Assembly: GCA_965206505.1 (NCBI GenBank)
Contig: CBDBJW010000005.1
Span: 567,596 to 631,595, forward strand
Length of the DNA: 64,000 bases
Source of the DNA: Longimicrobiales bacterium
GTDB taxonomy: Bacteria; Gemmatimonadota; Gemmatimonadetes; Longimicrobiales; Gaopeijiaceae
Direction of reading: 5' to 3'
The translations under genes were made by a program, and so were the position numbers. Under the pieces are notes generated by a model. That model searched no databases and had not been told where the DNA came from. It saw only the letters and a program-made list of their open reading frames with translations. Shown in pieces: positions 33,407 to 57,283 of the stretch (within the stretch, counting starts at the first letter, position 1; every line of letters begins with the position of its first letter).

Positions 33407-33411
33407 CAACT

Positions 33412-34155: not shown

Positions 34156-34574
34156 GCGAGCAACCGACATACACGCCTTTCCACCCTCGCTGGTATCGTC
34201 CGCGGGTTTCCACGTGGTGGTGGTTGAAGCGCTCGTCCTCGCGCGCGTTCATCTTGCGCGAGGTGAGCAGCATCTTCGTGGCGTGGTTCGTCTTATTCTT
34301 TCTGTTGCTGGTCGCTGCAGTGGGGCGTGGAGAGGCTGCTTACCAGGAGTTCATGAGTTGGGCCGCGAACCCGGGCATCGTGCTCGTCAACCTCGTCAGC
34401 CTGCTCTTTGTCGTATTCCACGCCATCACTTGGTTCAACCTGGCACCCCAGGCGATGGTGGTGCACATGCGAGGCAAGCGAGTGCCGGGGAAATTGATTG
34501 CCGCCTCCAACTACGGCCTGTGGGTGGTGACGTCTCTCCTGGTGGCGTGGATCATCCTCGCTGGGTCGAGGTAG
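34152..34574 (+). CDS. frdC: fumarate reductase membrane subunit C
   Basis: [27 protein letters not shown] ... [27 protein letters not shown] parallels E. coli FrdC (STWWKKLPFYRFYMLREGT...[27 protein letters not shown]). Confidence 0.85.
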
Positions 34575-34576
34575 CG

Positions 34577-34930
34577 ATGGCAAAGCGAGTAACGCTCGAG
34601 CCGCTCTTGTGGCTTCTCTTCAGCGCCGGGGGCGTGGTGGCTGCCCTGGTGATCCCGGTCCTGCTGTTGCTGTTCGGCCTCGTCTTCCCTCTCGGGCTCT
34701 CGCCCCCCAGCCATGAGCACATGCTCGCGGTTCTGGGCCACCCACTTTCGCGCGTGACGATTTTCGTGTCGTGCACGTTGTTGTTGTTTCACTCGGCGCA
34801 CCGCGTTCGCTTCACACTGTATGACGCGTTGCAGATCAAGCACCTGAACGAGTTGGTCATCCTGCTGGTTTACGGGGCCCTGCTCGTCGGTAGCGTTGCT
34901 GCAGGGTATCTCGTATGGCAGCTTCCATAG
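34577..34930 (+). CDS. frdD: fumarate reductase membrane subunit D
   Basis: EPLLWLLFSAGGVVAALVIPVLLLLFGLVFPLGL...LLLFHSAHRVRFTLYD parallels E. coli FrdD ([34 protein letters not shown]...LHRMHHAMHD). Confidence 0.8.
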   Translation: MAKRVTLEPLLWLLFSAGGVVAALVIPVLLLLFGLVFPLGLSPPSHEHMLAVLGHPLSRVTIFVSCTLLLFHSAHRVRFTLYDALQIKHLNELVILLVYGALLVGSVAAGYLVWQLP

Positions 34931-34936
34931 GGGAGT

Positions 34937-34996
34937 AGAGAAATCTCCCGAATTCCAGAGAACTTCTGACTCCGGCCGCTATGCGGCTACGGGCCG
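34937..34996 (+). repeat. 60-bp dispersed repeat, copy B
   Basis: AGAGAAATCTCCCGAATTCCAGAGAACTTCTGACTCCGGCCGCTATGCGGCTACGGGCCG. The central hairpin GCCGC-TAT-GCGGC differs from copy A (GCCGT-TAT-ACGGC) by a compensatory pair. Confidence 0.7.
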
Positions 34997-36106
34997 CAGG
35001 CAGGCGGCGCAGAACCTCCACTTCGTTCTCAATACCGCTCCACAGGTACATACTCGTCGCGCCATTCGCCCACAGTGTGGACAGCCCAGGGCATCCCATG
35101 GAACCTCCCCGCCACAGTCTGAGCAGGGTGCGATCGATCCAACGTCGCTCCGTATGACCCGAGCTGCCTCGTGCGGCGAAGTGAGGCCTTCGGACACCTT
35201 CCGGTTCACGTCTTCCGTCAGGGAGGCCATACCACTTTCGGCTGCAAGCCGCCCAAGATCCGACGCCGAGGCACCGCACATGATCTCGTCACGAATCGCG
35301 TCGTTCATCGCCAGCACTTGAAAGACTCCGGTCCGGCCCGAGTACCCATCTTCGCACCGGGTACAGGCTTCGGGGTTCCGGTCGCGGCAGAAGCGACAGA
35401 AGGTCCGCACGAGGCGCTGGGCGACAACGCCACTCAGACCACCCGCCACCAAATGGTGCGGCACCCCCATATGGAGAAGCCTGGTGATAGCCCCGGGGGC
35501 GTCTGTCGCATGAATCGTGGAGAGCACGAGGTGACCTGTAACCGCGGCACCCATGGCGATTTCCGCGGTTTCGCGATCCCGAATTTCACCGACCATTACG
35601 ACGTCGGGATCCTGCCGGAGGATGGCGCGGAGGGCCACGGGAAAGGTCAGCCCCGTGAGCGGGCTCACCTGGACCTGGTTGATGCCGGGGATGCGGTATT
35701 CCATAGGGTCTTCGACGGTGACCACGTTGAGCCCCTCTTGGTTCAGCTCGGCCAGAGCGGCAAACAGGCTGCTACTCTTGCCGCTTCCGGTCGGCCCGGC
35801 AGCGAGGATCACGCCCTGCCCAGCTTGGCCAAGTCGCCGCACGAGGGAGGCGTCGCGTCCGGAGGGGCCGAGTGCGTCGAGGTTTCGAGGCACCTTTAGC
35901 GGGTCCAGAAGCCTCAGCACGATCTTCTCACCCCCTGCCACAGGTAGTGCCGACGCCCGAATCCTCAGGGATCCGGCCGCGTGCTCGACGGTGAGACCGC
36001 CGTCCTGGGGCCTTCTCTTAACGGAGATATCCATTCCCGACATCACCTTGATCCGTGATGTGATCGAAGCCAGACCGCTCGCTGGAAGTGTGAGAGAGCG
36101 GCGCAG
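34979..36106 (-). pseudogene. GspE/PilB-type secretion ATPase, 5'-truncated at an IS30 end, with a C-terminal double zinc-ribbon tail
   Basis: ITSRIKVMSGMDISVKRRPQDG, Walker A GPTGSGKSS, VEDPMEY, ILRQDPDVVMVGEIRD, TGHLVLSTIHA. The N1 and N-terminal domains are missing. The apparent first 8-9 codons are actually the IS30 inverted repeat. Tail: CSDCGGEVPWDALGCPHCGRMARRVCTCGAVLRTKWRFCAAC. Confidence 0.75.
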
Positions 36107-38664
<2,558 letters not shown>

Positions 38665-39824: not shown

Positions 39825-40061
39825 ATGTCCGAGCGTATTATAGAGGGTCTCCGAATCCATATCGACCGAGACCTGTGTGTCAGCTTCGGGGACTGCATCG
39901 AGGCGGCACCAGTCGTCTTCGAGTTCGACGACGAGGAGATCGCGGTCTTTGTGGGTGAGGCAGGTAAAATCACTCGGAAAGAATTGATCGCCGCTTGCGC
40001 TTCTTGCCCCGTGGACGCACTGACCGCATTCGATGAAAAGGGGGGGCAACTCGCCCCTTGA
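39825..40061 (+). CDS. small single-cluster ferredoxin
   Basis: IHIDRDLCVSFGDCIEAAPVVFEFDDE ... CASCPVDAL is a C-x5-C...C-P pattern. Confidence 0.7.
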   Translation: MSERIIEGLRIHIDRDLCVSFGDCIEAAPVVFEFDDEEIAVFVGEAGKITRKELIAACASCPVDALTAFDEKGGQLAP

Positions 40062-40119
40062 CGGGTCGCCCCAGAAAGCGCCGACGTGATTCTTGGGCGT
40101 CTGGAAAAAGACTGATCCC

Positions 40120-41043
40120 ATGCGAAAGATTCGAACCTATCAAGACGTTACCCACGACACCGGCTCGGGCCTGCTCGAGCAGGTCGTGGACCAGCAACAC
40201 AGCCTTGCCGACCGTCTCGCTCAAGTTCGGTCCGTCGTGGCGGTCGCTAGTGGCAAGGGCGGTGTCGGCAAGAGCGCAATCACGGCCAACCTGGCGGCTG
40301 CTCTCGCGGCGAGAGGGCTCTCCGTGGGCGCCGTCGACGCGGACCTCAACGGACCGTCGCTGGGCCGCATGTTGGGCGTGTCCGGAGCCCGGCTGGCCGA
40401 TCTGCCAAGCGGAGTGGAGCCGGCCCAGAGCCCGTCGGGGGTACGGGTGATGTCCATGGAGTTGCTCCAGGAGGAGGAGGACGCTCCCCTTCGCTGGCGA
40501 GAGCCCGAAATGGGGGGGTTCATTTGGCAAAGCACGCTCGAAACGGGGGTCCTCCGGGAGTTCCTCGGGGACGTGGAGTGGGGAGACCTGGACGTACTCT
40601 TGGTCGACGTACCGCCCGGGACGGACAAGATCAGACGGCTCTTGGAGCTTGTCCCAGACGTCGATCAGATGCTCATGGTCACGACCCCGTCGGAGACGTC
40701 TCGGTTCGTGGTGTCCAAGTCCGTTCGTATGGCCCGTGAGGCCGCCGTTGGAACAGTCGCGCTGGTCGCGAACATGGTCGAGCACACGTGTCCAGAATGC
40801 GGCCACGTGTCCCAGCTCTTCACGGGTGACGGCGCCAAGCGCCTCGAAGAGGAATCCGGCATACCCGTCTGGGCCGAGATCCCCTTCGATCCACGGCTCG
40901 GCGCTGCCACTGACTCGGGCACGCCGCTCGTGGTCACCGACCCCGATGCCCACTCATGCCGGGCGATTCTCGCACTGGCCGACCGGGTCGAAGAACTCGT
41001 CGGGATCCGGGGCGAGGACGCGGTCGAAGGGGTGGGCCCATGA
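40120..41043 (+). CDS. Mrp/NBP35 (ApbC) family Fe-S cluster carrier P-loop ATPase
   Basis: VAVASGKGGVGKSAITANLAAALA, VDADLNGPS, LLVDVPPGTD, CPECGH. The start could alternatively be 40093. Confidence 0.85.
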   Translation: MRKIRTYQDVTHDTGSGLLEQVVDQQHSLADRLAQVRSVVAVASGKGGVGKSAITANLAAALAARGLSVGAVDADLNGPSLGRMLGVSGARLADLPSGVEPAQSPSGVRVMSMELLQEEEDAPLRWREPEMGGFIWQSTLETGVLREFLGDVEWGDLDVLLVDVPPGTDKIRRLLELVPDVDQMLMVTTPSETSRFVVSKSVRMAREAAVGTVALVANMVEHTCPECGHVSQLFTGDGAKRLEEESGIPVWAEIPFDPRLGAATDSGTPLVVTDPDAHSCRAILALADRVEELVGIRGEDAVEGVGP

Positions 41044-41561
41044 AGTTCCTCTGCTTGGACTGCGACAAAGTTATGGAGTTCGCCGAGCGCCAGATTCCTG
41101 GAGACGGAACGCTCGCTGCGGTATTCAAGTGCGGATCGTGCGAGAGGGAAATGGCGATGCTCACAAACCCGATGGAGACGCAACTGGTCTCCAGCATGGG
41201 CGTGAAGATCGGTGGACGCGAGGTCCCCACCCAGCCCATGGAGCTGGCCCGCACGAAACTCGAGGGCGGCCGCGACGATGCGTTCGTTTTGTCGGAGGAT
41301 ATTCCGCTCGCCTCGGGCGAGTCAGCGCTCGCCTCGGACGACCCGGCGGTTCGAGGTGAGGGCCCGGGCGCCGGCGAGGCCCCCGCGGGACCCGTTGTGT
41401 GGACGTCGGAGGCCACCGGACGCCTCGAGCGAGTCCCCAGCTTCGTCCGGGGTATGGTGAAGCGGATTTACACCGATTGGGCACGCGAGAAGGGCGTTTC
41501 GGAGATCACGCCCGAAAACATGGACCGGGCTCGCTCGGAGTTGGGCCTGGAAGGTATGTAG
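41040..41561 (+). CDS. zinc-ribbon + PCP_red (BchB C-terminal-like) domain protein
   Basis: N-terminus CLDC...CGSC. C-terminus VVWTSEATGRLERVPSFVRGMVKRIYTDWAREKGVSEITPENMDRA resembles the C-terminal domain of protochlorophyllide reductase subunit B. ATGA coupling to mrp. Confidence 0.7.
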   Translation: MKFLCLDCDKVMEFAERQIPGDGTLAAVFKCGSCEREMAMLTNPMETQLVSSMGVKIGGREVPTQPMELARTKLEGGRDDAFVLSEDIPLASGESALASDDPAVRGEGPGAGEAPAGPVVWTSEATGRLERVPSFVRGMVKRIYTDWAREKGVSEITPENMDRARSELGLEGM

Positions 41562-41563
41562 GC

Positions 41564-42556
41564 TTGTTCGGAGCCACGGAGCTTTCCTTCACCTATCCCT
41601 CGGGCCGCAAGGGCCTGGGAAAGGTCTCCCTCAAAGCGGCCCCCGGGGATCGAGTCGTTGTCATGGGCCCGAACGGATCCGGAAAGAGCACGCTGCTTCG
41701 CCTCGTCTCCACCGAGCTCCCCTCCAGCCCAGGAACGCTCGAGCTTTTCGGCGAGGCGTGCGGACCCTCCAGACGAGACTTTCGCAAGAGGAGAGACCTT
41801 CGCAAGAGGATCGGCATCGTGCAGGATACGCCGGTTCACGTGGAAGATCTCACAGGGATGGAGAACGGGCTCCTGTTCGCGGAGCTCTACGGGTTGCCCG
41901 GAGCCGAGGCTTTGGGGGCCTTTGCAGGCCTATTCACGTCACTCGGCCTGGATGATGCGCTCCACGTTCCCACGAGGGAGTACTCGTACGGAATGAAGAA
42001 GAAGCTTCTCATCGCCGAGGCTTTGGTTCACGACCCCGACATGCTCATAATGGACGAGCCCGCGCTCGGCCTGGATCCACCTTCGCGGGCAGCTCTCCTT
42101 CGAATACTGGAGGAGCGCTCGGGGAAGGGTGTGTGCACGCTCGCGGCCACCAACGAACCCGCGCTGGCCCAAGAGCTGGCTACAACGGTCGTCCTTCTCC
42201 ACGAAGGGGAGGTCGTCGCGCACGGCAGCCCAGCCGAGCTTTTGGCCAAGGTCGGCAGCGCCACACGAATCGAACTGTACGTCGCCGGCTCTCCGCCGGC
42301 CGGCCCCATAATGACTGACCCGGCCTTCACGGGGCTCCCGGGGGACATCGTGTCGATCCAAGGACTGCCCGGGCGGATCATCGCCGAGAGCAGATCGGGC
42401 TCCGATGTTCTGCCGGAATTGGTCGGCGCGGTCCTCGCGGCGGGGCTGAAGATCGAGCGGATCGAGATACGTGAACCCGACCTCACGGACGTGTTCATGC
42501 TCTTCACCGGCCAGGCCTTGGGCCCAGCTCGCCTCACTTCTTCAACAGGCCTCTAG
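41564..42556 (+). CDS. ABC transporter ATP-binding protein (ABC-2 exporter type)
   Basis: GPNGSGKSTLLRL, YSYGMKKKLLIAEAL (signature-like), LIMDEPALGLD. TTG start chosen at 41564 after GGAAGG. Confidence 0.8.
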   Translation: MFGATELSFTYPSGRKGLGKVSLKAAPGDRVVVMGPNGSGKSTLLRLVSTELPSSPGTLELFGEACGPSRRDFRKRRDLRKRIGIVQDTPVHVEDLTGMENGLLFAELYGLPGAEALGAFAGLFTSLGLDDALHVPTREYSYGMKKKLLIAEALVHDPDMLIMDEPALGLDPPSRAALLRILEERSGKGVCTLAATNEPALAQELATTVVLLHEGEVVAHGSPAELLAKVGSATRIELYVAGSPPAGPIMTDPAFTGLPGDIVSIQGLPGRIIAESRSGSDVLPELVGAVLAAGLKIERIEIREPDLTDVFMLFTGQALGPARLTSSTGL

Positions 42557-42563
42557 AGAACCC

Positions 42564-43335
42564 GTGACACTCCCCGTGTGGAGAACGGAGTGGCTCACTG
42601 CCCTGCGGCGCCGACGCCTCCTGGTGCTCAACACGCTGATCCCCCTGGCGTTCGTGGCGCCCATCGCCCTCAGTTCAGCCCCGGCGGTACACTCCGCGGC
42701 CGCCTTCACTGTGCTCTTCGCGCTCTTCGGCACGTTCGGGTCGAGCATCCCACTGATCCGTGACGGTGAATCCGGGCTCCTCCGGCGTTATGTGCTCACG
42801 GGAGTCCACCCTGGTGGCCTCCTCCTTCAGCGCGTACTCGCCACTGTGCTCTTCGCGCTCTTCGGCAACGCGGTGAATCCGGGCTCCTGCACTCGACTTG
42901 ATCGACGCTGCACTCGACTTGATCGAACTGGCGTCGGTGCTGGTTATCGTTGTAGCTGGGGGGAGCTCGACCGCTCAATTGGCCATGGTCGTGCCGGCGC
43001 TGGTACTTGGGCTGGTCGCAGCGAACGCATTAGGCGCGCTCACCGCCGCCCTGGCAAAATCAGTCGCCGAGGGAGCGCTCTTCTCGGCAGTAGCCGCCCT
43101 CCTGCTTCTGCATTGGGCGGGGACGTTTCGTACTCCTGTTCCCGGAACCTGGCAAGCCACTCTGGAGACGTGGAATCCGTTCCGCCCGCTCCATGAAAGC
43201 TTGCTCGCGGCGGCAGGCGCCGGCGGGCCCGACTTGGACCCTGTGCTATTCACAACTCCCATCGGAGTCACGCTGGCCGTGTTGCTCCTGATTACTGCCG
43301 CCGGCCGTTATACGATAGGGCTCGGTGGCCGCTGA
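42564..43335 (+). pseudogene. ABC-2-type permease disrupted by a 70-nt mosaic insertion
   Basis: Frame A (GTG 42564: VTLPVWRTEWLTALRRRRLLVLNTLIPLAF...) and frame B (...ALDLIELASVLVIVVAGG... to 43335) are both hydrophobic. Deleting 42842-42911 joins them in frame as ...LLLQRVLALDLIELASV... Confidence 0.6.
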
Positions 43336-43340
43336 GATCC

Positions 43341-43371
43341 GACTCCGAGCCGCTGAGCGGCTCCGCGGCCG
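43341..43371 (+). repeat. possible third, diverged copy of the hairpin part of the dispersed repeat
   Basis: GACTCCGAGCCGCTGAGCGGCTCCGCGGCCG versus GACTCCGGCCGCTATGCGGCTACGGGCCG. The stem is GAGCCGC-TGA-GCGGCTC. It lies directly after a stop codon, like copies A and B. Confidence 0.35.
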
Positions 43372-43479
43372 GCTTGAAATCGGGATCCGTCCCCCATCTG
43401 GTCGGCCGAGCAGCGCGCCCCCGCTGGCCTCGAAACCGGGGCCGGGCGCCACACGCCAACGAGCCTGCTCCCCGGCTTG

Positions 43480-43509
43480 TTGACAGGCCTGAGAAGGGTC
43501 GGGTATACT
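43480..43509 (+). promoter_or_regulatory. sigma-70-type promoter candidate (TTGACA-N18-TATACT)
   Basis: Perfect -35 hexamer at 43480-43485 and TATACT at 43504-43509, in the 511-bp gap preceding the respiratory operon. It would give a leader of roughly 330 nt. Confidence 0.5.
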
Positions 43510-43846
43510 CACTTTCTACAACATGCACCATTTGGAACAAGCGCCCCTTGGGTAGGGCGCCGAGGACCGTGCCTTCATCGATCCGAACACTTCGCCTCCG
43601 AGGTCGAGACCTCTCGCTTAGAGGTAAGCGATCTGGGAGATCAGGACTCCGGTCGTGCTTCGTAGGGCCCTCGCTTGCTGCGGATTACCGGTAGCCCTAT
43701 CTGTGTAAGGAAATTTTGACAACGGCTGCGCACCTCTAGAGCGAATCAGATCGTACTCGATGCCCTTCCGACTTCGAAAACGGGGGCGTTTGTGCGATCG
43801 GTATGTGAAGGGTGCCAGATAACCCGGGCCGACGCCCCAGGTGATT

Positions 43847-46060
43847 ATGTACCGTGAAGTTTTCGTACCCATCGATAACTCGGACAACTCCCACTGGGCC
43901 GTCGACCGTGCCATCGAACTCTGTAAGCGCTCCGAGGGGCGGATCACAGGCAACCATGTCTACGCGGCGCGCCTTCACGATGTGCGATTTCGCCAATTGG
44001 AAACCGGACTTCCTGCCCAATTCCAATCCGCGAAGGAAATCAAGCGGCAGCGGAAGGTACACGACAAGCTGATCGAGAAGGGCCTCCAGCTCATATCGGA
44101 TTCCTTTCTCGATCAGACGGCAATCAGTTGTGAGGCGGCGGGTGTACCGCTGACCCGGCAGCTCCTCGAGGGCATCAACTATGAGGAGGTCTCTCGGGAG
44201 GCCAACCGAGGCGCCGGCCGCCTTCCCAGCCTGATCGGCTTCGACCCGAACATAGCGGACAAGTATGACGGGGGTGAGACGGTCCGTAGCGACGTCATCG
44301 TGGACGAGGACGGACGGATCATCGCAGAAGACGAGGAGCAGGATGAGAAGCTCGCCGGCTCGAGTGGTCGCGACTACGACCTCCTTGCCATCGGGGCGCA
44401 TGGGATCGGAAAACAACCGTATTCACAGTTGGGTGGAATGGTGTCGCGGGTCATCCGCCAGGTCGAAAAGGACACCCTGATCGTCAGGAACGATCGCGCG
44501 CTAGAGGGCGGTGACTGGATCGTGTGTGTCGACGGTTCCTCTTACTCGTACAAGGCCATGCGGCATGCCTTGGAGATGGCCAAGGAGTTCGGGGCGAAGC
44601 TTCATGTGTGCTCGGCCTTCGACGTGGAATACCACCACGCCGTGTTCGGGAACATCAAGGACATTCTCTCCGTGCAGGCCTCGAAGGTCTTCAAGTTCGA
44701 GGAGCAGGAAGAGCTCCACAACAACATCATCGACAAGGGTCTTCTGAAGTTGGCGCAGGCCAACCTCAAGCGGGCTGAGGTGATGACAGAGGAGTTCCCC
44801 GACGTCGAAGTCGAGACCCAGATCCTCATCGGTAAACCCTTCCAATGTATCCTCCAGTGGGTCGAGGAGATCGACCCGAGCCTTGTGATCCTCGCCCGCC
44901 ACGGCGGGCACCGGATCGAGGGTACGGACATGGGATCTCAGGCGGACAACCTGTGCCGCCTCTCGCCCACGAACATCCTGCTCATCGGCACCACCAACGT
45001 TCGCCCGGACGACATTCCCTGGATCGAAGAGGACGGGGAGACTGGGCTCGAGTGGGCGCCAGATGCCGAAGTCCGAATTCTTCGGGTGCCCCCGTTCGCA
45101 CTCGGGATCGCGCGCAAGGCCGTTGAAGAATTCGTGCTCGACAACTACGGCCCCGGGGCCAACGGCACGTACCGGGAAGAGGCGATCGTACAGGCGGCCG
45201 TGAACGGCGCCTCCACCAACGGTGCCTCGACCAACAACGTCGCCTCGAACATCGGCGCCTCGAGCAACGGCGCCCCGGCCAACGGGGAAGGGGCCAACGG
45301 CGAAAGAACGCCCCTCACCGAAGCCGAAGACGCCGCCGATGGCTCGCTTCCCGGTGCTTCGGTGCCCCCGCTCGGTGCAGGCGGTCTTCCGATGGTGACG
45401 GGCCCTCGCTTGGACGAGGCCATTACGAAGCTGCTTCCGACCCACATGCAGTTGATCATGGGCATCGGAACGGCCGAAGAGCTTGCCCTCGCCGAGGTGA
45501 AGGCCGAGGACGCGATGAAACGGACTTTGGTCAACGGCCTGGATGCCGACCCCCAGCCGGACGTCCCCATGATCTCCGCCACCTGCCCTTACAGCGGTCA
45601 TCCGCTCATGCGTGAACGGACGGCGGACGACCCGGTCGAGTGGACCCAGGAGGCCTTCGAGCGACTGAAGCTGGTGCCGTTGATCGCGAGGCCGCTGGCC
45701 CGCAACACGGTGGAGAGATTCGCCCGTGAGAACGAATTCTGGAGAGTTACCACACCGGTCATGGATGAAAACAAGCAGGCCATGATCGAGGCCGACGAAT
45801 TCGACATGGACACGATGTTGGTCATGTTCCGTGAACTTCAGACCAAGCAGATCAAGGCGGCGGCCGAGGGCATCGACGGCATGACCCCCGAGATGCGCAA
45901 GTTCATCGAAGAGGCCAAAGCCAGCGGCGTGACCCGCTGCCCGATTCGGGACGTGGCCGAGGCCACTGAGAACTGCCCGGTGGACATCAAGACCGTCTCG
46001 CCAGAGGACGCGAAGGCCGCGATCGAGAAATTCATGAGCAAGGAACCCAGCGAAGCGTGA
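43847..46060 (+). CDS. tandem universal-stress-protein (USP) domains + two PCP_red-like modules + Cys-containing C-terminal domain
   Basis: USP 1 (VFVPIDNSDNSHWAVDRAIEL...LLAIGAHG...GGMVSRVIRQ). USP 2 (WIVCVDGSSYSYKAMRHALEMA...LVILARHG...GSQADNLCR). PCP_red-like LEWAPDAEVRILRVPPFALGIARKAVEEF and VEWTQEAFERLKLVPLIARPLARNTVERFAREN. Asn/Gly/Ala/Ser-rich linker at about 45190-45310. Confidence 0.75.
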   Translation: MYREVFVPIDNSDNSHWAVDRAIELCKRSEGRITGNHVYAARLHDVRFRQLETGLPAQFQSAKEIKRQRKVHDKLIEKGLQLISDSFLDQTAISCEAAGVPLTRQLLEGINYEEVSREANRGAGRLPSLIGFDPNIADKYDGGETVRSDVIVDEDGRIIAEDEEQDEKLAGSSGRDYDLLAIGAHGIGKQPYSQLGGMVSRVIRQVEKDTLIVRNDRALEGGDWIVCVDGSSYSYKAMRHALEMAKEFGAKLHVCSAFDVEYHHAVFGNIKDILSVQASKVFKFEEQEELHNNIIDKGLLKLAQANLKRAEVMTEEFPDVEVETQILIGKPFQCILQWVEEIDPSLVILARHGGHRIEGTDMGSQADNLCRLSPTNILLIGTTNVRPDDIPWIEEDGETGLEWAPDAEVRILRVPPFALGIARKAVEEFVLDNYGPGANGTYREEAIVQAAVNGASTNGASTNNVASNIGASSNGAPANGEGANGERTPLTEAEDAADGSLPGASVPPLGAGGLPMVTGPRLDEAITKLLPTHMQLIMGIGTAEELALAEVKAEDAMKRTLVNGLDADPQPDVPMISATCPYSGHPLMRERTADDPVEWTQEAFERLKLVPLIARPLARNTVERFARENEFWRVTTPVMDENKQAMIEADEFDMDTMLVMFRELQTKQIKAAAEGIDGMTPEMRKFIEEAKASGVTRCPIRDVAEATENCPVDIKTVSPEDAKAAIEKFMSKEPSEA

Positions 46061-47487
46061 GCAGCGCAGCAGATCTCAGGTCCATGTCCTCTGCAACTCT
46101 GGCACCTCCCGCTCCGGAAGGGCTCGAGACGGTCGCGCCAAGCCGGGAGCGGGGTCCGTACACTCCGCATATCGTTGCGTGGAACCTCACGAAGCGATGT
46201 AACCTGGCGTGTGCGCACTGTTATATCTCGGCGGGTTCCTGGCATGTGGCCGACGATGAGCTCTCCACGGATCAATGCTTGCGCATCCTGGATGAGATTC
46301 TCGACGTGAACCCCAACCCCATGTTGATCCTTACTGGGGGAGAGCCCCTCCTTCGAGACGACCTGGAGGCCCTGGCAAAGCAAGCTTCTGCGGGGGGCGC
46401 CACGGTTGTGGTGGGAACCAACGGGACGCGCCTTAGCGGCGAGCGTATCGACTCCCTGTTGGAAGCCGGCGTTAAGGGTGTCGCGGTGAGTATCGACTCG
46501 CTGCGTCCCGAGTATCATGATCGGTTTCGGCACGGCGGGGGCGCACTCACGGACACGATGGCTGCGGTCGAGCGTTGCTCGGCTCGAAAGCTCGATTTTG
46601 TTATTCAGACGACCGTCACGTCCGGTAATCGGCACGAAATTGCAGATTTGGCTCGCTGGTCGGCCGAGGCGGGAGCCGTTTCCTTCAACGTCTACTTCGT
46701 GGTCCCGACCGGGCGCGCAGAACATATGCAGGGCATGAGTCCCGAAGAGAACGACGAAGTCCTTCGTGAGCTCGTCGAGCTGGAGGGGACCTATCGCGGC
46801 CGCATGATGGTCCGCTCGAAGTGCCAACCACAGATCATGAGGCACGTGGTCGGGGGTGATCCGGAGTCTCCCCTGCTGAACTATGAGACTCGCTGTCCCT
46901 GTGGTGTCCACTACGTGCGTATCACGCCTGAGGGCAAGGTCACGCCATGTCCTTATATGCCCGTGGTCGCGGGGGACCTGTTGACGCAGAGTTTTCAGGA
47001 AATCTGGGAGTCGTCGCCCGTCTTCACCAAGCTCAGAACAGGCGAGCTGGGCGGACGGTGCGGACGGTGCGAGTACCGCGAAGTGTGCGGAGGATGCCGC
47101 GCCCGCGCCTATGCCGACAACGGCGATTTTATGGGTCCGGATGATTCCTGCGCCTACGAGCCGTCCGGAGAGACACCCCTCATTGCGTCTCGCCGGCCGG
47201 TCTCCTACGGGCAATCAGTCCCAGATGGGCAGTCGGGCGCCGACCGCGGCGCCTCCATCGAGCAAACCCCATCGGTCGCCCTCGAGTGGACCCCGGAAGC
47301 GCTCGCCCGCATGGACAAAGTACCAAGCTTCGTTCGGGGAGTGGTCATACAAAGGGTCGAGAAGTTCGCCAATGACCGAGGCTACACATGCGTGGATGTG
47401 GAAGTCATGGAGGAGGTTCGTCGGAACCTCCCCGTGGATTTCTCCAAGAAACTTCCGTTCTTCTTGGGAAGAGGGGGAAGGGCATGA
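46057..47487 (+). CDS. radical SAM / SPASM enzyme of the NirJ/AhbC/AhbD (tetrapyrrole-modifying) type with a C-terminal PCP_red module
   Basis: CNLACAHCY cluster motif, LILTGGEPLL, VGTNGT, SIDS, QTTVT, VPTGR. SPASM end GGRCGRCEYREVCGGCRARAYADNGDFMGPDDSCAY. C-terminus LEWTPEALARMDKVPSFVRGVVIQRVEKFANDRGY. Confidence 0.8.
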   Translation: MSSAADLRSMSSATLAPPAPEGLETVAPSRERGPYTPHIVAWNLTKRCNLACAHCYISAGSWHVADDELSTDQCLRILDEILDVNPNPMLILTGGEPLLRDDLEALAKQASAGGATVVVGTNGTRLSGERIDSLLEAGVKGVAVSIDSLRPEYHDRFRHGGGALTDTMAAVERCSARKLDFVIQTTVTSGNRHEIADLARWSAEAGAVSFNVYFVVPTGRAEHMQGMSPEENDEVLRELVELEGTYRGRMMVRSKCQPQIMRHVVGGDPESPLLNYETRCPCGVHYVRITPEGKVTPCPYMPVVAGDLLTQSFQEIWESSPVFTKLRTGELGGRCGRCEYREVCGGCRARAYADNGDFMGPDDSCAYEPSGETPLIASRRPVSYGQSVPDGQSGADRGASIEQTPSVALEWTPEALARMDKVPSFVRGVVIQRVEKFANDRGYTCVDVEVMEEVRRNLPVDFSKKLPFFLGRGGRA

Positions 47488-49274
47488 GAGCGGTGAGCTT
47501 GAAGCTCGTGGGGGTGTTGAGCCTCACCGCGCTGGCTCTTCACCTGTTCGCCGACGTGGCCTGGGCGCAGGATATCGCCGGCCGAGACTACGGGGATTTC
47601 CCCGTGATCGGGGGGCGCACGGCCGTCTGGATCGCAGCCCAGGTCCACCTTCTCTTCGCGGCCTTCGTGCTCGGCGTGCCCATGTTCGCGGTGGTCGCCG
47701 AGGGCTACGGCATGTGGGGCGGTGGCTCGAATTATGATAAGCTCGCGAAGGAGTTCACGCGGCTGTTGCTCGTGGCGTACTCCGCAACGGCGATCTGGGG
47801 AGCCATCCTCTCCTTCCTCCTCATCACGATCTTCCCCAACCTGTGGATCTACCTTGCTGAGATCTTCGAGGTCTCCATGTGGCTCTACGTGGGACTCTTC
47901 TTCTTCGAGTCGTTCACCCTCTATCTGTACTACTACGGCTGGGATCGCTGGAACCAGGGGCGGGCCAAGCTGGGCCACTTGACGTTGGGGATTTTGCTGA
48001 ACGTCTTTGGCACGGTGGTGATGCTCATCGCCAACTCGTGGCTCACATACATGATGAGCCCGCCGGCGGAGGTGACTGCCGACACCGCGCCTGGAATGGT
48101 CCCACTGTGGAACGCCATCGCGAACGCGACCTGGATGCCCATCAACATCCATCGGGTCATCGCCAACCTCGTGTTCGGCGGTGCGATCGTGGGCGCCTAT
48201 GCGGCCTACCGCTTTCTAATGGCGAGGACGGACGAAGAGCGCGCTCATTACGACTGGATGGGCTACGTCGGAAACCTGATCGCGATCGGCTGGCTTATCG
48301 TCCTGCCCTTCGCCGGTTACTACCTGGGCCGAGAGCTCTACGAGTTCAGCCCGCAGATGGGCAACACCCTCATGGGCGGATTCATGAGCTGGCTTTGGAT
48401 CATCCAGGCCTTTTTGATCGGAGTGCTGTTTCTGGCGGGCAACTATTACTTGTGGGTCGGCATGGGACGCATCCCGGGAGCCGAGCGGTTCACGCCCTAC
48501 ACGAAATACATGCTGGTCGTGCTCGTGATAGGCGTCATGGTGTGGGCGACGCCGCACACGATGATCGCCAGCCGGGAAGAGGTCGACGCCATGGGCGGGG
48601 TGTACCACCCGTTCCTGGGTGTCCTTGGCGTCATGAGCGCCAAGAACACGGCCGTGAATATCATGATCTTGACGACGATCCTCTCGTTCCTGCTCTACGG
48701 GCGCGCGAACAAGAACCCGACAGTTCCGTGGGCTAGGACGGGCACGATGGTGCAGGCGGCTCTGTTCCTGATCGCCGCGATCATCGTGATGTTTTACGGC
48801 GTATACGGCTACTTCGTCGACGCGATCACACGGGTCGGTTTCTCGGTCTGGCAGGTACTGGCGGTGCTGGTGACCATCGTGGGCGTGGGCATCATTCACC
48901 TGTTCATGATGCGCGGCGCGGAGTCGCGCGGTGACATCCGGTGGGGTCAGATGCCCCCTCGTTCCCAATACGCGCTCTTCATCTTGGCCGTCACGTTCAC
49001 ATGGCTGATGGGTCTCATGGGCTTCGCCCGGAGCGGCATCCGCCAGCACTGGCATGTGTGGGAGGTCGTGCGAGACACGAGCGAGTGGGCGTCGACGCCT
49101 GCGCTCGGCTACGCCGCCCTCGTGATCTCCGCCTGCGTGTTGATCTTCTTCACGCTCGTGGCGTTCATTTTCTGGCTCGGTGGGCTAGCCGAGAAGCCGT
49201 TCGCCCCACAGGCGAGAACGGACGCCTCCCCGTCCACTGGAGGGCCGGAGCTCGCTCCGGCCGCGGGCGACTGA
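47484..49274 (+). CDS. cytochrome bd subunit I (CydA)-like membrane protein, non-canonical (no Q-loop, N-terminal signal-like peptide, no cydB partner)
   Basis: AAQVHLLFAAFVLGVPMF (His19-type context), WLYVGLFFFESFTLYLYYYGWDRW (compare FFLESTF..GWDR), LNVFGTVVMLIANSWLTYMMSPP (compare ANSWMQ.P) and INIHRVIANLVFGGAIVGAYAAYRFL (His186-type context). 596 aa and hydrophobic to the end. ATGA coupling to the radical SAM gene. Confidence 0.7.
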   Translation: MRAVSLKLVGVLSLTALALHLFADVAWAQDIAGRDYGDFPVIGGRTAVWIAAQVHLLFAAFVLGVPMFAVVAEGYGMWGGGSNYDKLAKEFTRLLLVAYSATAIWGAILSFLLITIFPNLWIYLAEIFEVSMWLYVGLFFFESFTLYLYYYGWDRWNQGRAKLGHLTLGILLNVFGTVVMLIANSWLTYMMSPPAEVTADTAPGMVPLWNAIANATWMPINIHRVIANLVFGGAIVGAYAAYRFLMARTDEERAHYDWMGYVGNLIAIGWLIVLPFAGYYLGRELYEFSPQMGNTLMGGFMSWLWIIQAFLIGVLFLAGNYYLWVGMGRIPGAERFTPYTKYMLVVLVIGVMVWATPHTMIASREEVDAMGGVYHPFLGVLGVMSAKNTAVNIMILTTILSFLLYGRANKNPTVPWARTGTMVQAALFLIAAIIVMFYGVYGYFVDAITRVGFSVWQVLAVLVTIVGVGIIHLFMMRGAESRGDIRWGQMPPRSQYALFILAVTFTWLMGLMGFARSGIRQHWHVWEVVRDTSEWASTPALGYAALVISACVLIFFTLVAFIFWLGGLAEKPFAPQARTDASPSTGGPELAPAAGD

Positions 49275-50695
49275 TGCAGGATTCCACAGTGGGCCTCCTG
49301 GCCTCCTTCGATTACGTAGACTCGGCCGTGAATGCCATCGACGAGTTAAGGGCAGCCGGCCTCAAGAAGATCACCGCGTACATGCCGTATCCCGAGGCCC
49401 AAATCGAGGAGGCGCTCGGGTACGATCAGAGCCCTGTCAGGGTGTGGGCGTTGGCGGGTGGGCTTTTGGGCGCCGGCGGCGGATTGGCTCTCACGTCCTT
49501 TACCTCGATGGATTGGCCGTTGGTCACGGGTGGCAAGCCGATCCTCTCGATTCCCGCCTATGTGATCATCACGTTCGAGATGATGGTCTTGTTCGGCGCG
49601 TTGTCCACCGTGATCGGGCTCTTCATCAATAGCCGCCTTCCCTATGTCAAACCGATGGTCGTCTATGATCCGGAGTTCAGCGCTGGGAAGTTCGGGGTCT
49701 ATGTGACGGTAGCGGCTGATCGCCTCGATCGAGCCAGGGGCATCCTGAGGGGCCAGGACCCGGCTGAAATCCGGGAAGATCCTGTGGGGGTTACTCACGC
49801 TGTCCCCCGACTCGACCCGGGATCCGACGTCCGGGAAGAGCCTGTGGGGGTGGGGGCAGGCGCGGCGCATGCGGCGTCCGGATTCGATTCGGGATCTGAG
49901 GCTCGCGAGATGCTGATGGAAAACCTCAAGATCTTCGCGGTCGTCATCGGCACGCTTGGCACCTTCACGCTCGTGGCCAATATCATTCCGCAGTTACAGT
50001 CGGAGGTGCCTGCGGAACTCGTCTTCGGAGCCGACGTGAGCCCCGAGGAGCTGACGTTGTCCGGGCAGATCCTCTTCGAAGGGGCCGCAGGTTGTGTGGC
50101 CTGTCACGGGCTGGGCGAGAGGGCTCCGAACCTTCTGACGGACCACGAGGCCACGGGCACAATCGGCGTACGGTGCGCGAATCGCGTGCCCAGCCAGGAT
50201 TGCAAGGCGTACCTCTACGCCTCGCTGATCGACCCGACAACGTACCTCGTGGACGGCTTCGCAGCGCTCATGACGGACTACCGTGCGCAGCTCTCGAACG
50301 CGCAGATCTGGGCGCTCGTGGCCTACCTGCAGTCCGAGGGCGGCGAGGTGACCGTAACGGGCGCAGACATCATCGAGACCGGCGGTTTTACGAGTTCTGC
50401 CGCCGCCCCGGCGGGACCTCTCACGGCGTCCATGGATCCCGTCGAGATCGTGACAGCCCTTGGGTGCCTCGGCTGCCACGTATTCGACGGAGGGGGAGCC
50501 CCGATGGGTCCCCCGTTCGACGGGATCGGCACACGCATAGATGCCGACTATATCCGCGAGTCGATCCTGGATCCGACCGCCAGCGCCTCGGAGGGTTTCG
50601 AGCAATTCCTGGGCGCAATGCCTCCGATCTTCGGTAGCCAACTCAACGGGAGTCAGTTGGAAGCCGTGGTACAGTTCCTGGCCAACCAACGCTAA
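49274..50695 (+). CDS. ActD-like (DUF3341) membrane domain fused to a dihaem cytochrome c
   Basis: N-terminus GLLASFDYVDSAVNAIDELRAAG...GGLLGAGGGLALTSFTSMDWPLVTGGKPILSIPAYVIITFEMMVLFGAL matches the alternative complex III ActD/DUF3341 pattern. This is followed by an acidic repeat linker, a TM helix and two CXXCH motifs (CVACH, CLGCH). Confidence 0.7.
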   Translation: MQDSTVGLLASFDYVDSAVNAIDELRAAGLKKITAYMPYPEAQIEEALGYDQSPVRVWALAGGLLGAGGGLALTSFTSMDWPLVTGGKPILSIPAYVIITFEMMVLFGALSTVIGLFINSRLPYVKPMVVYDPEFSAGKFGVYVTVAADRLDRARGILRGQDPAEIREDPVGVTHAVPRLDPGSDVREEPVGVGAGAAHAASGFDSGSEAREMLMENLKIFAVVIGTLGTFTLVANIIPQLQSEVPAELVFGADVSPEELTLSGQILFEGAAGCVACHGLGERAPNLLTDHEATGTIGVRCANRVPSQDCKAYLYASLIDPTTYLVDGFAALMTDYRAQLSNAQIWALVAYLQSEGGEVTVTGADIIETGGFTSSAAAPAGPLTASMDPVEIVTALGCLGCHVFDGGGAPMGPPFDGIGTRIDADYIRESILDPTASASEGFEQFLGAMPPIFGSQLNGSQLEAVVQFLANQR

Positions 50696-50713: not shown

Positions 50714-51514
50714 ATGGGCAAGTACTTCAAGCATCCCTTGGGCCAGGCTGGCCTGGTCCTAGTGGCCTCTTACTTTCTGTTGGAGTACGGGATCGCGTAC
50801 CTCCCGCCTTTGGTCGGCATCGCAAGCGCTCCGGTCCCGAATTCGGTGGTGTTCCAGTTTCTCGTTACCGTGGGCGTGGGGGTCCTCCTCTGGGTCAGCG
50901 ACAACGAAGCCCGTTGGACGGAGTTCAAGGAGCCGATCCACCGCGTGATGGTGGACCCGGACCAGAAGCTGGCTCGGAGCTCGCTGATGGTGCTGGTGCC
51001 GATCCTCGTAGCATTCGCGACGTTCAGTCAGGTAAGACCTTCTGTGGCAGCGCCTTCGAGCCTACGCTCGATTCACCCGTCGGCTCCGAGCCAGTTCGAG
51101 TTTCAGGGATCGATGGTGGAGCTCACCAGCTTGGAGAACCCCCTGCGCTCGAGTGGCTCCTTGGAGGAGCACTATGAAGAAGGGAAGCGCGTCTACTATG
51201 AGAACTGTCTGGCCTGTCATGGTGACGGCCTCGACGGCCGGGGGCATTACGCGCATGGATTCAATCCTGCCCCCCTGAGCTTCCAGGACGTCGGCACCAT
51301 CGCGCAGCTCGTCGAAGCCTTTGTTTTCTGGCGTATCGCGAAGGGGGGACCCGGGCTTCCCAACGAGGGGGGCCCGTGGAACTCGGCCATGCCGGCATGG
51401 GAGGACTTCCTGACTGAAGACGAGATCTGGTCCGTGATCATCTTCTTGTATGAGCAGTCCGGTCATGAACCGCGCACGTTCGAAGAGGAAGGCGGAGAGG
51501 GGGAGGCGGAATGA
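50714..51514 (+). CDS. membrane-anchored monohaem cytochrome c
   Basis: Three N-terminal hydrophobic helices, then YYENCLACHGDGLDG ... MPAW is a class I cytochrome c pattern. Confidence 0.75.
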   Translation: MGKYFKHPLGQAGLVLVASYFLLEYGIAYLPPLVGIASAPVPNSVVFQFLVTVGVGVLLWVSDNEARWTEFKEPIHRVMVDPDQKLARSSLMVLVPILVAFATFSQVRPSVAAPSSLRSIHPSAPSQFEFQGSMVELTSLENPLRSSGSLEEHYEEGKRVYYENCLACHGDGLDGRGHYAHGFNPAPLSFQDVGTIAQLVEAFVFWRIAKGGPGLPNEGGPWNSAMPAWEDFLTEDEIWSVIIFLYEQSGHEPRTFEEEGGEGEAE

Positions 51515-53139
51515 CGGCCGCGATGGGCACGATGAGTGGGCAAGCAGCCGGTATCGCCAGGCAGATGGCCTTGATCGTCCTCCTCTCGGCGGCATCGGCA
51601 CTAGTTGGGGATGGCCTGAGCGCTCAGGACGGGGACGATCTCGGCCAGATCACCTATGACCGTTGGTGTGCCGGCTGCCACGGTGTGGACGGGACGGGCA
51701 ACGGCCCCGCCTCCGGCTACATGCTTCCCCGGCCACGGGACTTCACCGAGGCGCTGTACCAGATTCGGACGACGGCCAGCGGCGAGCTCCCAACGGATGA
51801 GGACATTCGGGCCATAATCGACCGGGGGATGCCGGGTACGACGATGCCGGGCTGGGAGGATCTTCTTTCAAACGACGAGATAGAGGCGCTGGTCGAGTAT
51901 CTCAAGTCGTTTTCCCGGTTCTTCACTCCCGATGCGGTCCCGCAGCCTTTCGACTTCGGTGGCGCCCCGCGGGTCAATGCCGACGTGCTCGCTGAAGGTG
52001 AGGGGCTGTTCCGGGAAGTAGCGGATTGCGCGGCGTGCCATGGGGACGGGGGCCGAGGCGACGGAGAGTCTTCACCGACGCAGGTCGATGACGGGGACTT
52101 TCCGATTCGCGTGGCCGACCTGACCGAGAACTGGCTGTTCAACGGCGGCGGAGAGGTCGAGGACATCTACCGTCGACTGCTGACGGGCCTGGACGGCACG
52201 CCCATGCCGAGCTTGGCCGACGTCGTCACCGCGGGCGTCCTCACCTACGAACAGGTCTGGGCCGTTGCACACTACGTTCGCAGCCTTGCACCCGACGACC
52301 CGCCGGGAATCACCGAGGTTGTCCGGGGTGTTCTCTTCGAGGACGTTCCGCTTCCGTCGTCGGTCGACGACGAAGCGTGGGATGACATCGAGGCCGCCTA
52401 CCTACCGCTCGTCGGACAAATCATCGTGATGCCGCGCTGGTTCGACCCCCGGGTGGACGGTGTCTGGGTGCAGGCCGCGCATGACGGAGAATCCGTGGCA
52501 GTTCGTGTCACCTGGAGCGATCCCAACAGCAGCCCCGATCCTTTGTGGGCCGACTGGAAGTCCTTGGTGATTTCGCTCATGCAGCCGAAGGAGGGAGACC
52601 CCCAGGACGAGGGGCCGACGCCCGATCAACTCGTGGTCCAGTTCCCGATGGAGATGCCGGAGGGCATGGAGCGGCCGTTCTTCCTGAAGGGGGACAACCG
52701 CCGTCCGGTGTATCTGTGGCAGTGGCAGAGTGACCGCGTTAGCGCCCTGGAAGGCGAGGCCGGCGGCGTCGGGACCGAGGCCTTCCAATCGGAGGGGCAA
52801 AACCTTACCGTAGACGCCTCGCATGCGGACGGCCAATGGCAGGTCATGTTCACGAGGCCGCTCGTCACGGACAACGAAGGCGACCTCGATTTCGTGACCG
52901 GTGAGGCCATTCCGATGGCCTTGTTCGCCTGGGATGGAGACAACGGGGAATCCGGCACCAGGGGCGCGGTCAGTTCCTGGTACTTCATGTTCCTCGAGGA
53001 CGCCACTCCCGCCACTGTGTATGTGGCCCCCGCTTTGGCTATGATGTTGACGGCCGCGTTTGGATTCTTGGTGGTAGCCCGCGCCCAGAAGAGGGAGCGG
53101 GAGGGTGGTGAAGTAGAAAGCAAGACACCGTATAGTTGA
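51511..53139 (+). CDS. dihaem cytochrome c fused to an EB_dh-like (ethylbenzene dehydrogenase gamma / DOMON-like haem-binding) domain, C-terminal TM anchor
   Basis: CAGCHGVDGTGNG and CAACHGDGGRGDG. Then VQFPMEMPEGMERPFFLKGDNRRPVYLWQW...LFAWDGDNGESGTRGAVSSWYFMFLE. C-terminal helix VAPALAMMLTAAFGFLVVA. Confidence 0.65.
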   Translation: MTAAMGTMSGQAAGIARQMALIVLLSAASALVGDGLSAQDGDDLGQITYDRWCAGCHGVDGTGNGPASGYMLPRPRDFTEALYQIRTTASGELPTDEDIRAIIDRGMPGTTMPGWEDLLSNDEIEALVEYLKSFSRFFTPDAVPQPFDFGGAPRVNADVLAEGEGLFREVADCAACHGDGGRGDGESSPTQVDDGDFPIRVADLTENWLFNGGGEVEDIYRRLLTGLDGTPMPSLADVVTAGVLTYEQVWAVAHYVRSLAPDDPPGITEVVRGVLFEDVPLPSSVDDEAWDDIEAAYLPLVGQIIVMPRWFDPRVDGVWVQAAHDGESVAVRVTWSDPNSSPDPLWADWKSLVISLMQPKEGDPQDEGPTPDQLVVQFPMEMPEGMERPFFLKGDNRRPVYLWQWQSDRVSALEGEAGGVGTEAFQSEGQNLTVDASHADGQWQVMFTRPLVTDNEGDLDFVTGEAIPMALFAWDGDNGESGTRGAVSSWYFMFLEDATPATVYVAPALAMMLTAAFGFLVVARAQKREREGGEVESKTPYS

Positions 53140-56609: not shown

Positions 56610-56612
56610 CGC

Positions 56613-57269: not shown

Positions 57270-57283
57270 AGGCGGGAGCAATC

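Follow-up and report, generated by a model that had tools for sequence, protein, structure and literature searches.

We analysed a 64,000-nucleotide stretch of DNA from a Longimicrobiales bacterium (contig CBDBJW010000005.1, positions 567,596 to 631,595; hereafter the window), in which four copies of PCP_red, the domain otherwise found at the end of the BchB subunit of dark-operative protochlorophyllide reductase (DPOR), are spread over a Zn-ribbon protein, a tandem-USP protein and a radical S-adenosylmethionine (SAM) enzyme encoded close to one another. We found that all four modules are genuine PCP_red domains, three of them complete and one truncated. PCP_red marks a distinct subfamily of AhbD-like radical SAM enzymes, whose members are mostly accompanied by other PCP_red proteins and stand repeatedly beside OR-N2-type and haem-copper oxidase genes. 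The oxidase operon that follows in the window, translationally coupled to the PCP_red genes and not identified in a preliminary description of this DNA, appears to be their target. As for its role, we tentatively favour docking: PCP_red would assemble a cytoplasmic complex that tailors haem for this oxidase or inserts it.

The preliminary description had drawn attention to four PCP_red-like peptides, all of which we found at the positions it gave, and a regular expression for their motif, run over the six frames of the window, matched these four sites only. The peptides, the modules to which they belong and the proteins that carry them are listed below; all lie on the + strand.

41040-41561: Cys4 Zn-ribbon protein with a C-terminal PCP_red (48.9 bits)
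41394-41495: motif peptide of the Zn-ribbon protein (residues 119-152)
41400-41534: Pfam PCP_red module of the Zn-ribbon protein (residues 121-165)
43841-46060: tandem-USP protein, two PCP_red modules, conserved tail (Usp PF00582 100 bits, in two stretches; PCP_red 49.6 bits)
45017-45142: PCP_red module A of the USP protein, truncated, helices 1-2 only
45047-45133: first motif peptide of the USP protein (residues 403-431)
45635-45733: second motif peptide of the USP protein (residues 599-631)
45641-45775: PCP_red module B of the USP protein, complete by Pfam and family profile
46057-47487: AhbD/NirJ2-like radical SAM/SPASM enzyme with a C-terminal PCP_red (Radical_SAM 94 bits, SPASM 39 bits)
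47281-47382: motif peptide of the radical SAM enzyme (residues 409-442)
47287-47421: Pfam PCP_red module of the radical SAM enzyme (residues 411-455; 60.4 bits)

The modules were tested against Pfam PF08369, for which the gathering score is 32.5 bits. Those of the Zn-ribbon protein (48.9-51.7 bits) and the radical SAM enzyme (60.4-64.6 bits) and module B of the USP protein (41.1-49.6 bits) scored above this cutoff. Module A, scored as a sub-sequence, reached 22.4 bits (E = 1.3e-4) and covered positions 1-29 of the 45 in the profile, so that the earlier call of four PCP_red modules held for three of them at the curated cutoff and failed for this one. Against a family-specific profile built from 190 non-BchB PCP_red modules, module B scored 71.1 bits and module A 42 bits, the latter aligned to positions 3-44 of 67 and ending after helix 2. 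The third helix of module A is either missing or displaced by an 80-residue insert of low complexity, rich in Asn, Gly, Ala and Ser (45143-45382), which is encoded by a DNA tandem repeat at 45203-45285 (periods 15, 18 and 33). Past the insert, residues 515-535 give a weak, non-significant match to the missing helix. Orthologues of the USP protein in Gemmatimonadota contain exactly two PCP_red modules in 77 of 80 cases, and because module A is complete in approximately 45 of these 77 we regard it as a real copy that has been degraded in this lineage.

AlphaFold (AF2) models predict three helices for PCP_red modules. When the model of the Zn-ribbon protein's module was submitted to Foldseek, it was superimposed on the structure 2KRU (root-mean-square deviation 1.3 Å, TM 0.75), on 2L09 (TM 0.66) and on ChlB in 2YNM (2YNM_D; root-mean-square deviation 1.5 Å). 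The predicted helix pattern of the radical SAM module is the same, and its sequence matches the C-termini of BchB/ChlB and the stand-alone PCP_red nuclear magnetic resonance structures 2KRU and 2L09. The window modules therefore have in common with BchB/ChlB, 2KRU and 2L09 both the motif W-T-x-E-A...VP-x-F-V-R...A...G and the three-helix fold, but in contrast to BchB/ChlB they have no Oxidored_nitro core attached and are instead fused to a Zn ribbon, a tandem USP and a radical SAM/SPASM enzyme. Outside BchB/ChlB, PCP_red frequently occurs in arrays of 2-6 copies, and it is found in non-phototrophs.

Consistent with the earlier statement that BchN/BchB cores are absent, no Oxidored_nitro domain was detected in window open reading frames (ORFs) of at least 400 residues, NCBIfam DPOR_BchB models matched only over their own last ~55 residues, and no photosynthesis genes were found in the window. 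To survey domain architectures and neighbourhoods, as the preliminary description had proposed, we searched a four-module profile against 1.84 billion representative proteins and obtained 1,536 clusters at E <= 1e-3, many with 2-6 modules per protein. Among the best 140 representatives (50%-identity), 139 passed Pfam PCP_red and none was DPOR-like: the domain was combined with Usp (37 proteins), rubredoxin-like Zn ribbons (14), Radical_SAM (7) and SPASM (6), and never with Oxidored_nitro. By source name, PCP_red proteins came from Nitrospinota, Ca. Manganitrophus (Nitrospirota), Ca. Binatia and anammox Planctomycetota. We know of no phototrophs among these groups or among the Gemmatimonadota studied here.

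The radical SAM enzyme contains the motif CNLACAHC (CX3CX2C), and the cysteines are invariant in a 76-sequence alignment. Over its full length it matched the NCBIfam models NirJ2 (285 bits) and AhbD (273 bits), in both cases below the 500-bit equivalog cutoff, and it scored 140-171 bits against AhbC, NirJ and NirJ1. As these NirJ2 and AhbD scores exceed those against the peptide maturase models PqqE (104 bits) and mycofactocin maturase (126 bits), they point to a kinship of the enzyme with tetrapyrrole enzymes. In the AF2 model (pLDDT 83.7), the PCP_red module follows a disordered linker at residues 390-405. The closest folds found by Foldseek were the SPASM enzymes SkfB, PqqE, SuiB and anSME, with no AhbD or NirJ structure among the matches; the structure of AhbD was still unsolved according to a 2022 review (PMC10114771).

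We compared 80 loci from a metagenome scan seeded with a radical SAM alignment, together with six loci found individually. The 33 loci with a PCP_red-bearing radical SAM gene included 18 with a USP-PCP_red gene, 12 with Mrp, 12 with Zn-ribbon-PCP_red and 9 with CydA, the order of the genes varying from locus to locus. None of these four genes was present at the 53 loci of PCP_red-less relatives, 21 of which had an adjoining radical SAM paralogue, an arrangement like that of AhbC/AhbD pairs. A neighbour-joining tree of these enzymes' radical SAM cores, built without bootstrap, grouped the 35 PCP_red-bearing sequences in a single clade that contained no PCP_red-less one. The window enzyme shares with AhbD/NirJ2 and NirJ/AhbC the CX3CX2C motif and the SPASM auxiliary-cluster cysteines, and it aligns to AhbD and NirJ2 over the full length. 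It differs from AhbD/NirJ2 in scoring below their cutoffs, in its separate clade, in lacking AhbA/B/C neighbours and in standing beside terminal-oxidase genes, and members of the family to which it belongs bear between one and three PCP_red modules. In the locus DNA of the Gemmatimonadota we saw no second radical SAM paralogue, decarboxylase or AhbA/B/C gene.

The oxidase genes that follow the PCP_red genes, again on the + strand, are as follows.

47484-49274: CydA-like membrane protein, putative subunit I of an OR-N2-type cytochrome bd-like oxidase (Cyt_bd_oxida_I 61 bits)
49274-50695: fusion of an ActD domain and a c-type cytochrome (ActD 143 bits, Cytochrom_C, Cytochrome_CBB3)
50714-51514: membrane-anchored c-type cytochrome (Cytochrome_CBB3 36.9 bits)
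51511-53139: dihaem cytochrome c with EB_dh, EbdC-like haem b (EB_dh 72 bits, two Cytochrom_C, DMSO_red_II_gam 90 bits)
53165-53944: CarboxypepD_reg (CPDreg) protein (Pfam 43.4 bits)
54043-57550: haem-copper (caa3-type) oxidase genes COX2, COX1, COX3 and COX4-like
54043-54813: COX2 (Pfam)
54813-56609: COX1 (Pfam, 485 bits)
56613-57269: COX3 (Pfam)
within 57188-57550: COX4-like ORF, a COX4_pro homologue by phmmer

The CydA-like protein has a signal-like N-terminus, approximately 14 hydrophobic segments and six invariant histidines (H87, H197, H255, H287, H407 and H556, numbered from the ORF start at 47388). OR-N2 operons have been described (Murali et al., bioRxiv 10.1101/2021.01.16.426971) as encoding a CydA-like protein with ~14 helices along with an EbdC homologue and several cytochromes c, and by helix count and operon content the downstream half of the cluster would belong to this type. 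At the phylum level, OR-N enzymes have been reported from Gemmatimonadota, Nitrospinota, Nitrospirota and Planctomycetota, and it is predicted that Nitrospira, Nitrospina, Manganitrophus and many Gemmatimonadota rely chiefly on these bd-like enzymes for terminal oxidation. Searches of Murali et al. turned up no mention of radical SAM or USP genes in the main text or supplements, nor of ferredoxin or protochlorophyllide in the supplements; Mrp was not searched for there. Coupling between the genes takes the form of four-nucleotide overlaps, which join Mrp to the Zn-ribbon gene (ATGA), the USP gene to the radical SAM gene (GTGA), the radical SAM gene to CydA (ATGA) and the cytochrome c gene to EB_dh.

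The gene set is conserved across the phylum. A scan seeded with CydA, with one genome per species, gave at least 591 matches, and the best 80 loci, which we analysed, were all from Gemmatimonadota of several orders (Longimicrobiales, Gemmatimonadales, Ca. Palauibacter), the closest homologues of the window proteins being from Longimicrobiales. Gene set and order were kept at all 80 species loci with enough flanking DNA: Mrp adjoins Zn-ribbon-PCP_red, with the ferredoxin on either side and an ABC transporter pair in about a quarter of the loci, and the order then continues through USP-PCP_red, rSAM-PCP_red (radical SAM with PCP_red), CydA, cytochromes, EB_dh and CPDreg to COX2-1-3. The CPDreg gene travels with the oxidase genes in 63 of the 80 loci, in the Binatia locus and in several others. 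Median identity to the window proteins was 72.3% for CydA, 71.7% for USP-PCP_red, 66.3% for COX1, 58.3% for the radical SAM enzyme, 53.8% for the Zn-ribbon protein and 46.8% for Mrp. In 25 of the 80 loci (for example, L001 2330-5428) the cluster has a gene for an HmuY-like (haem-binding) protein no more than 10 kb away, with none detected in the window itself, and hemA/hemB adjoin the cluster in a few loci; together these neighbours give a weak hint of a link to haem.

Beyond Gemmatimonadota, the PCP_red proteins recur in other arrangements. Nitrospinota have USP-PCP_red and rSAM-PCP_red with no CydA nearby, Ca. Manganitrophus has both of these and a PCP_red-only protein, and in Binatia the order is cytochrome c/EB_dh, CPDreg, cytochrome c, USP-PCP_red, rSAM-PCP_red. 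In locus L089, CydA-like, cytochrome and EB_dh genes are followed by rSAM-PCP_red and by a 1,147-residue USP protein with six PCP_red modules (by the family profile), and in L089, L106, L112 and L119 alike the CydA-like, cytochrome c and EB_dh genes adjoin the USP/radical SAM pair in differing orders. Brocadia (anammox) has rSAM-PCP_red alone. The number of modules per partner protein shifts with lineage (1+2+1, 1+3, 3+3, 5+1+4, 6+1), so that a locus holds from four (1+2+1 or 1+3) up to ten (5+1+4). Since module numbers move between partner proteins in this way, the modules would seem to be interchangeable docking units.

On one metagenome contig (L097, WNFS01001953.1), USP-PCP_red, rSAM-PCP_red and Mrp follow COX2-COX1-COX3-CPDreg, and there is no CydA-like gene in the 10 kb upstream; because of this locus, the haem-copper oxidase could be a client too, either alongside the bd-like enzyme or in its place. 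Genes for small membrane proteins flank the USP/radical SAM pair in Nitrospinota (DUF420, L084 8123-8797) and in Manganitrophus (CopD-like, L086 15208-15672), both by weak Pfam matches; DUF420 presumably includes CtaM, which we take to be linked to aa3 oxidase function. A Rosetta-stone fusion link between the N-terminus of the Zn-ribbon protein and the rubredoxin-like domain of the long USP-PCP_red proteins (Manganitrophus, L089) was considered and rejected, as BLASTP aligned PCP_red only.

Upstream of the PCP_red genes are two further members of the cluster, on the + strand.

39825-40061: mono-cluster ferredoxin, ~78 residues, in an ORF that reaches back to 39678 (Pfam Fer4_13 39.9 bits, Fer4_15)
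40093-41043: Mrp/NBP35/ApbC-type P-loop ATPase, Fe-S carrier (Pfam ParA/NUBPL PF10609 233 bits)

Together with the tetrapyrrole-type radical SAM enzyme and the CydA-like protein, the neighbours named in the preliminary description were thus correctly recognised, as judged by Pfam. The ferredoxin was found in the cluster at 57 of 80 Gemmatimonadota loci, and its homologues are 73-88 residues long. The Mrp protein shares with the Mrp/NBP35/ApbC and MrpORP carriers the ParA/NUBPL domain, a deviant Walker A (GKGGVGKS) and a CxxC motif (CPEC). Unlike the known carriers, it scored below the equivalog cutoffs of the NCBIfam models MrpORP (212 bits, cutoff 450) and ApbC (158 bits, cutoff 348), and its gene overlaps and pairs with that of the Zn-ribbon-PCP_red protein.

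The Zn-ribbon protein, whose family is named 'PCP reductase family protein' at NCBI, has an invariant CxxC...CxxC in the alignment. In its AF2 model, the PCP_red module forms three helices (pLDDT ~90) and residues 43-115 are disordered. Within this region, residues 43-90 (MLTNPMETQLVSSMGVKIGGREVPxQPMELARTxLEGGRDDAF, within window positions 41040-41309) are nearly invariant in close homologues, yet are predicted to be disordered (pLDDT below 50), and for this reason we would expect them to fold on a partner. The segment is likely a partner-binding motif, and the partner is perhaps the translationally coupled Mrp.

A docking role for PCP_red is favoured because the modules sit on flexible, low-confidence linkers in the AF2 models and shift in copy number between partners. 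In the mechanism that we propose, PCP_red would be a small three-helix docking unit on a flexible tether that holds a cofactor-maturation complex together. Within this complex, the ferredoxin would donate electrons for SAM cleavage, and Mrp, held by the conserved disordered segment of the Zn-ribbon protein, would load three [4Fe-4S] clusters. The AhbD-like enzyme may then act by radical chemistry on an iron tetrapyrrole, at one of its propionate side chains, with the tandem-USP protein acting as a nucleotide-binding scaffold or gate, and the product would be passed to the CydA-like oxidase and possibly also to the neighbouring haem-copper oxidase. The hypothesis of the preliminary description, a shared docking or tetrapyrrole-handling module, is retained here in that the modules are genuine, lie outside DPOR and are common to one system; its analogy between Mrp and NifH and its tetrapyrrole handling are kept as less likely alternatives.

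Several points weigh against this proposal. No binding partner or ligand has been demonstrated for PCP_red, either here or in BchB. The loci of Nitrospinota, Manganitrophus and anammox bacteria have no adjoining CydA-like gene, and the rSAM-PCP_red of Brocadia is solitary. USP-PCP_red is conserved to the same degree as CydA, which would be expected of a permanent subunit or regulator more than of a transient assembly factor. The iron-tetrapyrrole substrate of the radical SAM enzyme is putative, since the enzyme falls below every NCBIfam equivalog cutoff, the cluster contains no AhbA/B/C or other late haem genes, and OR-N enzymes are not known to have a 'special haem' that such a complex could make.

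We considered whether PCP_red itself transiently binds the iron tetrapyrrole, as substrate or product, and relays it among the oxidase, the radical SAM site and the Zn-ribbon and USP proteins. This would agree with the presence of the domain otherwise on BchB and here on an AhbD-like enzyme, and with arrays of 2-6 copies, as might be expected of a carrier or buffer; conserved arginines of the motif could also pair with propionates. The motif, however, has no conserved His, Cys, Met or Tyr able to ligate iron, and the titles of 2KRU and 2L09, as given in search output, name no ligand. In DPOR, the element reported to touch protochlorophyllide in trans is the BchB helix 398-420 (PMC12022308), and on the BchB C-terminus the cryo-EM paper and the reviews deal with this helix alone. 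Since this helix lies upstream of the PCP_red segment (~471-520), tetrapyrrole handling is not established even for BchB, and we regard such a role in the window as doubtful.

A second alternative is that the radical SAM enzyme is a housekeeping oxygen-independent haem b synthase (AhbD, coprohaem decarboxylase) that its PCP_red and USP partners tune to oxygen or energy, its place next to genes for haem-rich oxidases serving co-regulation. Homologues are annotated as 'heme b synthase' or 'AdoMet-dependent heme synthase' by some sources, the AhbD and NirJ2 models match over the full length, and hemA and hemB adjoin the cluster in a few loci. In Nitrospira marina, USP proteins encoded beside electron-transport operons rise at low O2 (PMC8115632). 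Against this, the 273-285 bits of the window enzyme fall well short of the 500-bit equivalog cutoff, it belongs to a clade separate from the PCP_red-less enzymes in AhbC/AhbD-like pairs, no AhbA/B/C neighbours were seen at its loci, and translational coupling is tight and to one specific oxidase. We therefore consider a housekeeping function unlikely.

Mrp and NifH/BchL are both SIMIBI P-loop dimers, and PCP_red could accordingly be a landing pad for Mrp, as BchNB is for the BchL dimer, with nitrogenase-like, ATP-driven delivery of electrons or clusters. The adjacency of Mrp and Zn-ribbon-PCP_red, which overlap here and adjoin in nearly every arrangement where both were detected, would suit this model, as would a weak Fer4_NifH match on the P-loop. 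That match scored 19.9 bits against a cutoff of 25, and the DPOR_bchL match 20.7 bits against a cutoff of 345; both are confined to the P-loop, and the earlier suggestion of a NifH/BchL-like ATPase serving PCP_red draws on P-loop class alone. The loci of Nitrospinota, Manganitrophus, Binatia and L089 have no Mrp and yet are rich in PCP_red, and the likeliest partner-binding part of the Zn-ribbon protein is segment 43-90, not PCP_red. We judge this model to be decidedly unlikely.

We regard it as very unlikely that a protein is the substrate of the radical SAM/SPASM enzyme, as it would be if a cross-link were introduced into a cytochrome or into the CydA-like subunit, with PCP_red recruiting the substrate in the manner of RiPP (ribosomally synthesised and post-translationally modified peptide) recognition elements. 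The nearest solved folds, SkfB, PqqE, SuiB and anSME, are indeed peptide- or protein-modifying enzymes, but there was no AhbD/NirJ structure that the fold search could have returned, the AhbD/NirJ2 profiles lead those of PqqE and the mycofactocin maturase by ~160-180 bits, and the cluster has no conserved gene for a small precursor peptide. Finally, chance similarity of the motif, or descent from a degraded photosynthesis cluster (some Gemmatimonadota are phototrophs), is already refuted, as three modules exceed the curated Pfam cutoff, the six frames of the window contain no further copy of the motif, DPOR core genes are missing from the window, and the genes are kept in 80 of 80 sampled species and in the non-phototrophic Nitrospinota, Manganitrophus, Binatia and anammox bacteria.

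Between the Zn-ribbon and USP genes, on the + strand where a strand applies, lie the following features.

~41564-42556: ABC transporter ATPase, DrrA-like (ABC_tran 87.6 bits, drrA subfamily 160 bits), from a putative start codon
~42564-43335: ABC-2 permease, disrupted by a frameshift and an insertion
43336-43840: intergenic gap of 505 nucleotides, the only large gap between these genes
43480-43509: sigma-70-like promoter match (TTGACA-18-TATACT, 11 of 12 positions; consensus match only)

The number of sigma-70-like sites in the region is not above shuffled expectation. The ABC ATPase is an optional member of the cluster, present at only ~20 of 83 loci. The reading frame at 42558-42842 corresponds to residues 21-115 of a permease homologue and a different frame, at 42907-43332, to residues 117-259, and the break contains ~64 extra nucleotides, including a perfect 21-bp tandem duplication at 42887-42926. 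As only about a quarter of related loci have the ABC pair, it may be decaying here; an assembly error may also account for the break.

In the remainder of the window, an IS30-like transposase gene (36300-37688, - strand) lies inside or against an IS3-like element on the same strand (OrfA 38344-38664; OrfB 37574-38347, with the rve domain cut at position 77 of 102), and a T2SSE/PilB-like ATPase gene that lacks the N-terminal 45 profile positions (34979-36130, - strand) adjoins them, which suggests nested insertions at 34979-38664, a short way upstream of the respiratory genes. Three genes that resemble a GlcDEF-type glycolate oxidase set (21116-25229; two FAD-linked oxidase subunits and a CCG/Fe-S subunit) and succinate dehydrogenase/fumarate reductase genes (31667-34930) are ordinary respiratory and central-metabolism neighbours. 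ORFs with no Pfam match are found at 14870-16486 (538 residues) and, just downstream of the COX genes, at 57577-58440 (287 residues) and 59059-60021 (320 residues). A tRNA scan of the window found no tRNA genes.

Other haem-containing respiratory enzymes likewise have accessory genes that lie beside them or on which they depend, a haem-handling radical SAM protein included (PMC10114771): HemW inserts haem into NarI, CydDC serves cytochrome bd, and the Nir genes, NirJ among them, serve haem d1. These sets are composed of other protein families, and none uses PCP_red, USP or Mrp. In the literature, we found no paper on PCP_red outside DPOR and none tying radical SAM or USP genes to bd-like oxidases. 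The PCP_red domain, its architectures and the name 'PCP reductase family protein' are already in databases; what would be new is a radical SAM tetrapyrrole-maturation set with this shared module and this client. A more far-reaching proposal, which we put forward as a speculation with a low chance of being correct, is that the radical SAM enzyme, with the USP protein, the Zn-ribbon protein, Mrp and the ferredoxin, makes or inserts an unrecognised modified haem specific to OR-N-type oxidases, for example by an oxygen-independent side-chain modification, and that PCP_red is a portable docking or hand-off domain of which BchB is one instance.

These genes, which would equip a specialised radical SAM tetrapyrrole enzyme with an Fe-S loader and a reductant of its own and are coupled to an oxidase gene, offer concrete candidates for the identity and synthesis of the OR-N cofactor. 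If the docking role that we favour is correct, it would also provide the first functional context for PCP_red, whose role at the end of BchB is unexplained in the literature that we consulted, and it would be relevant to those who study OR-N oxidases and DPOR alike.

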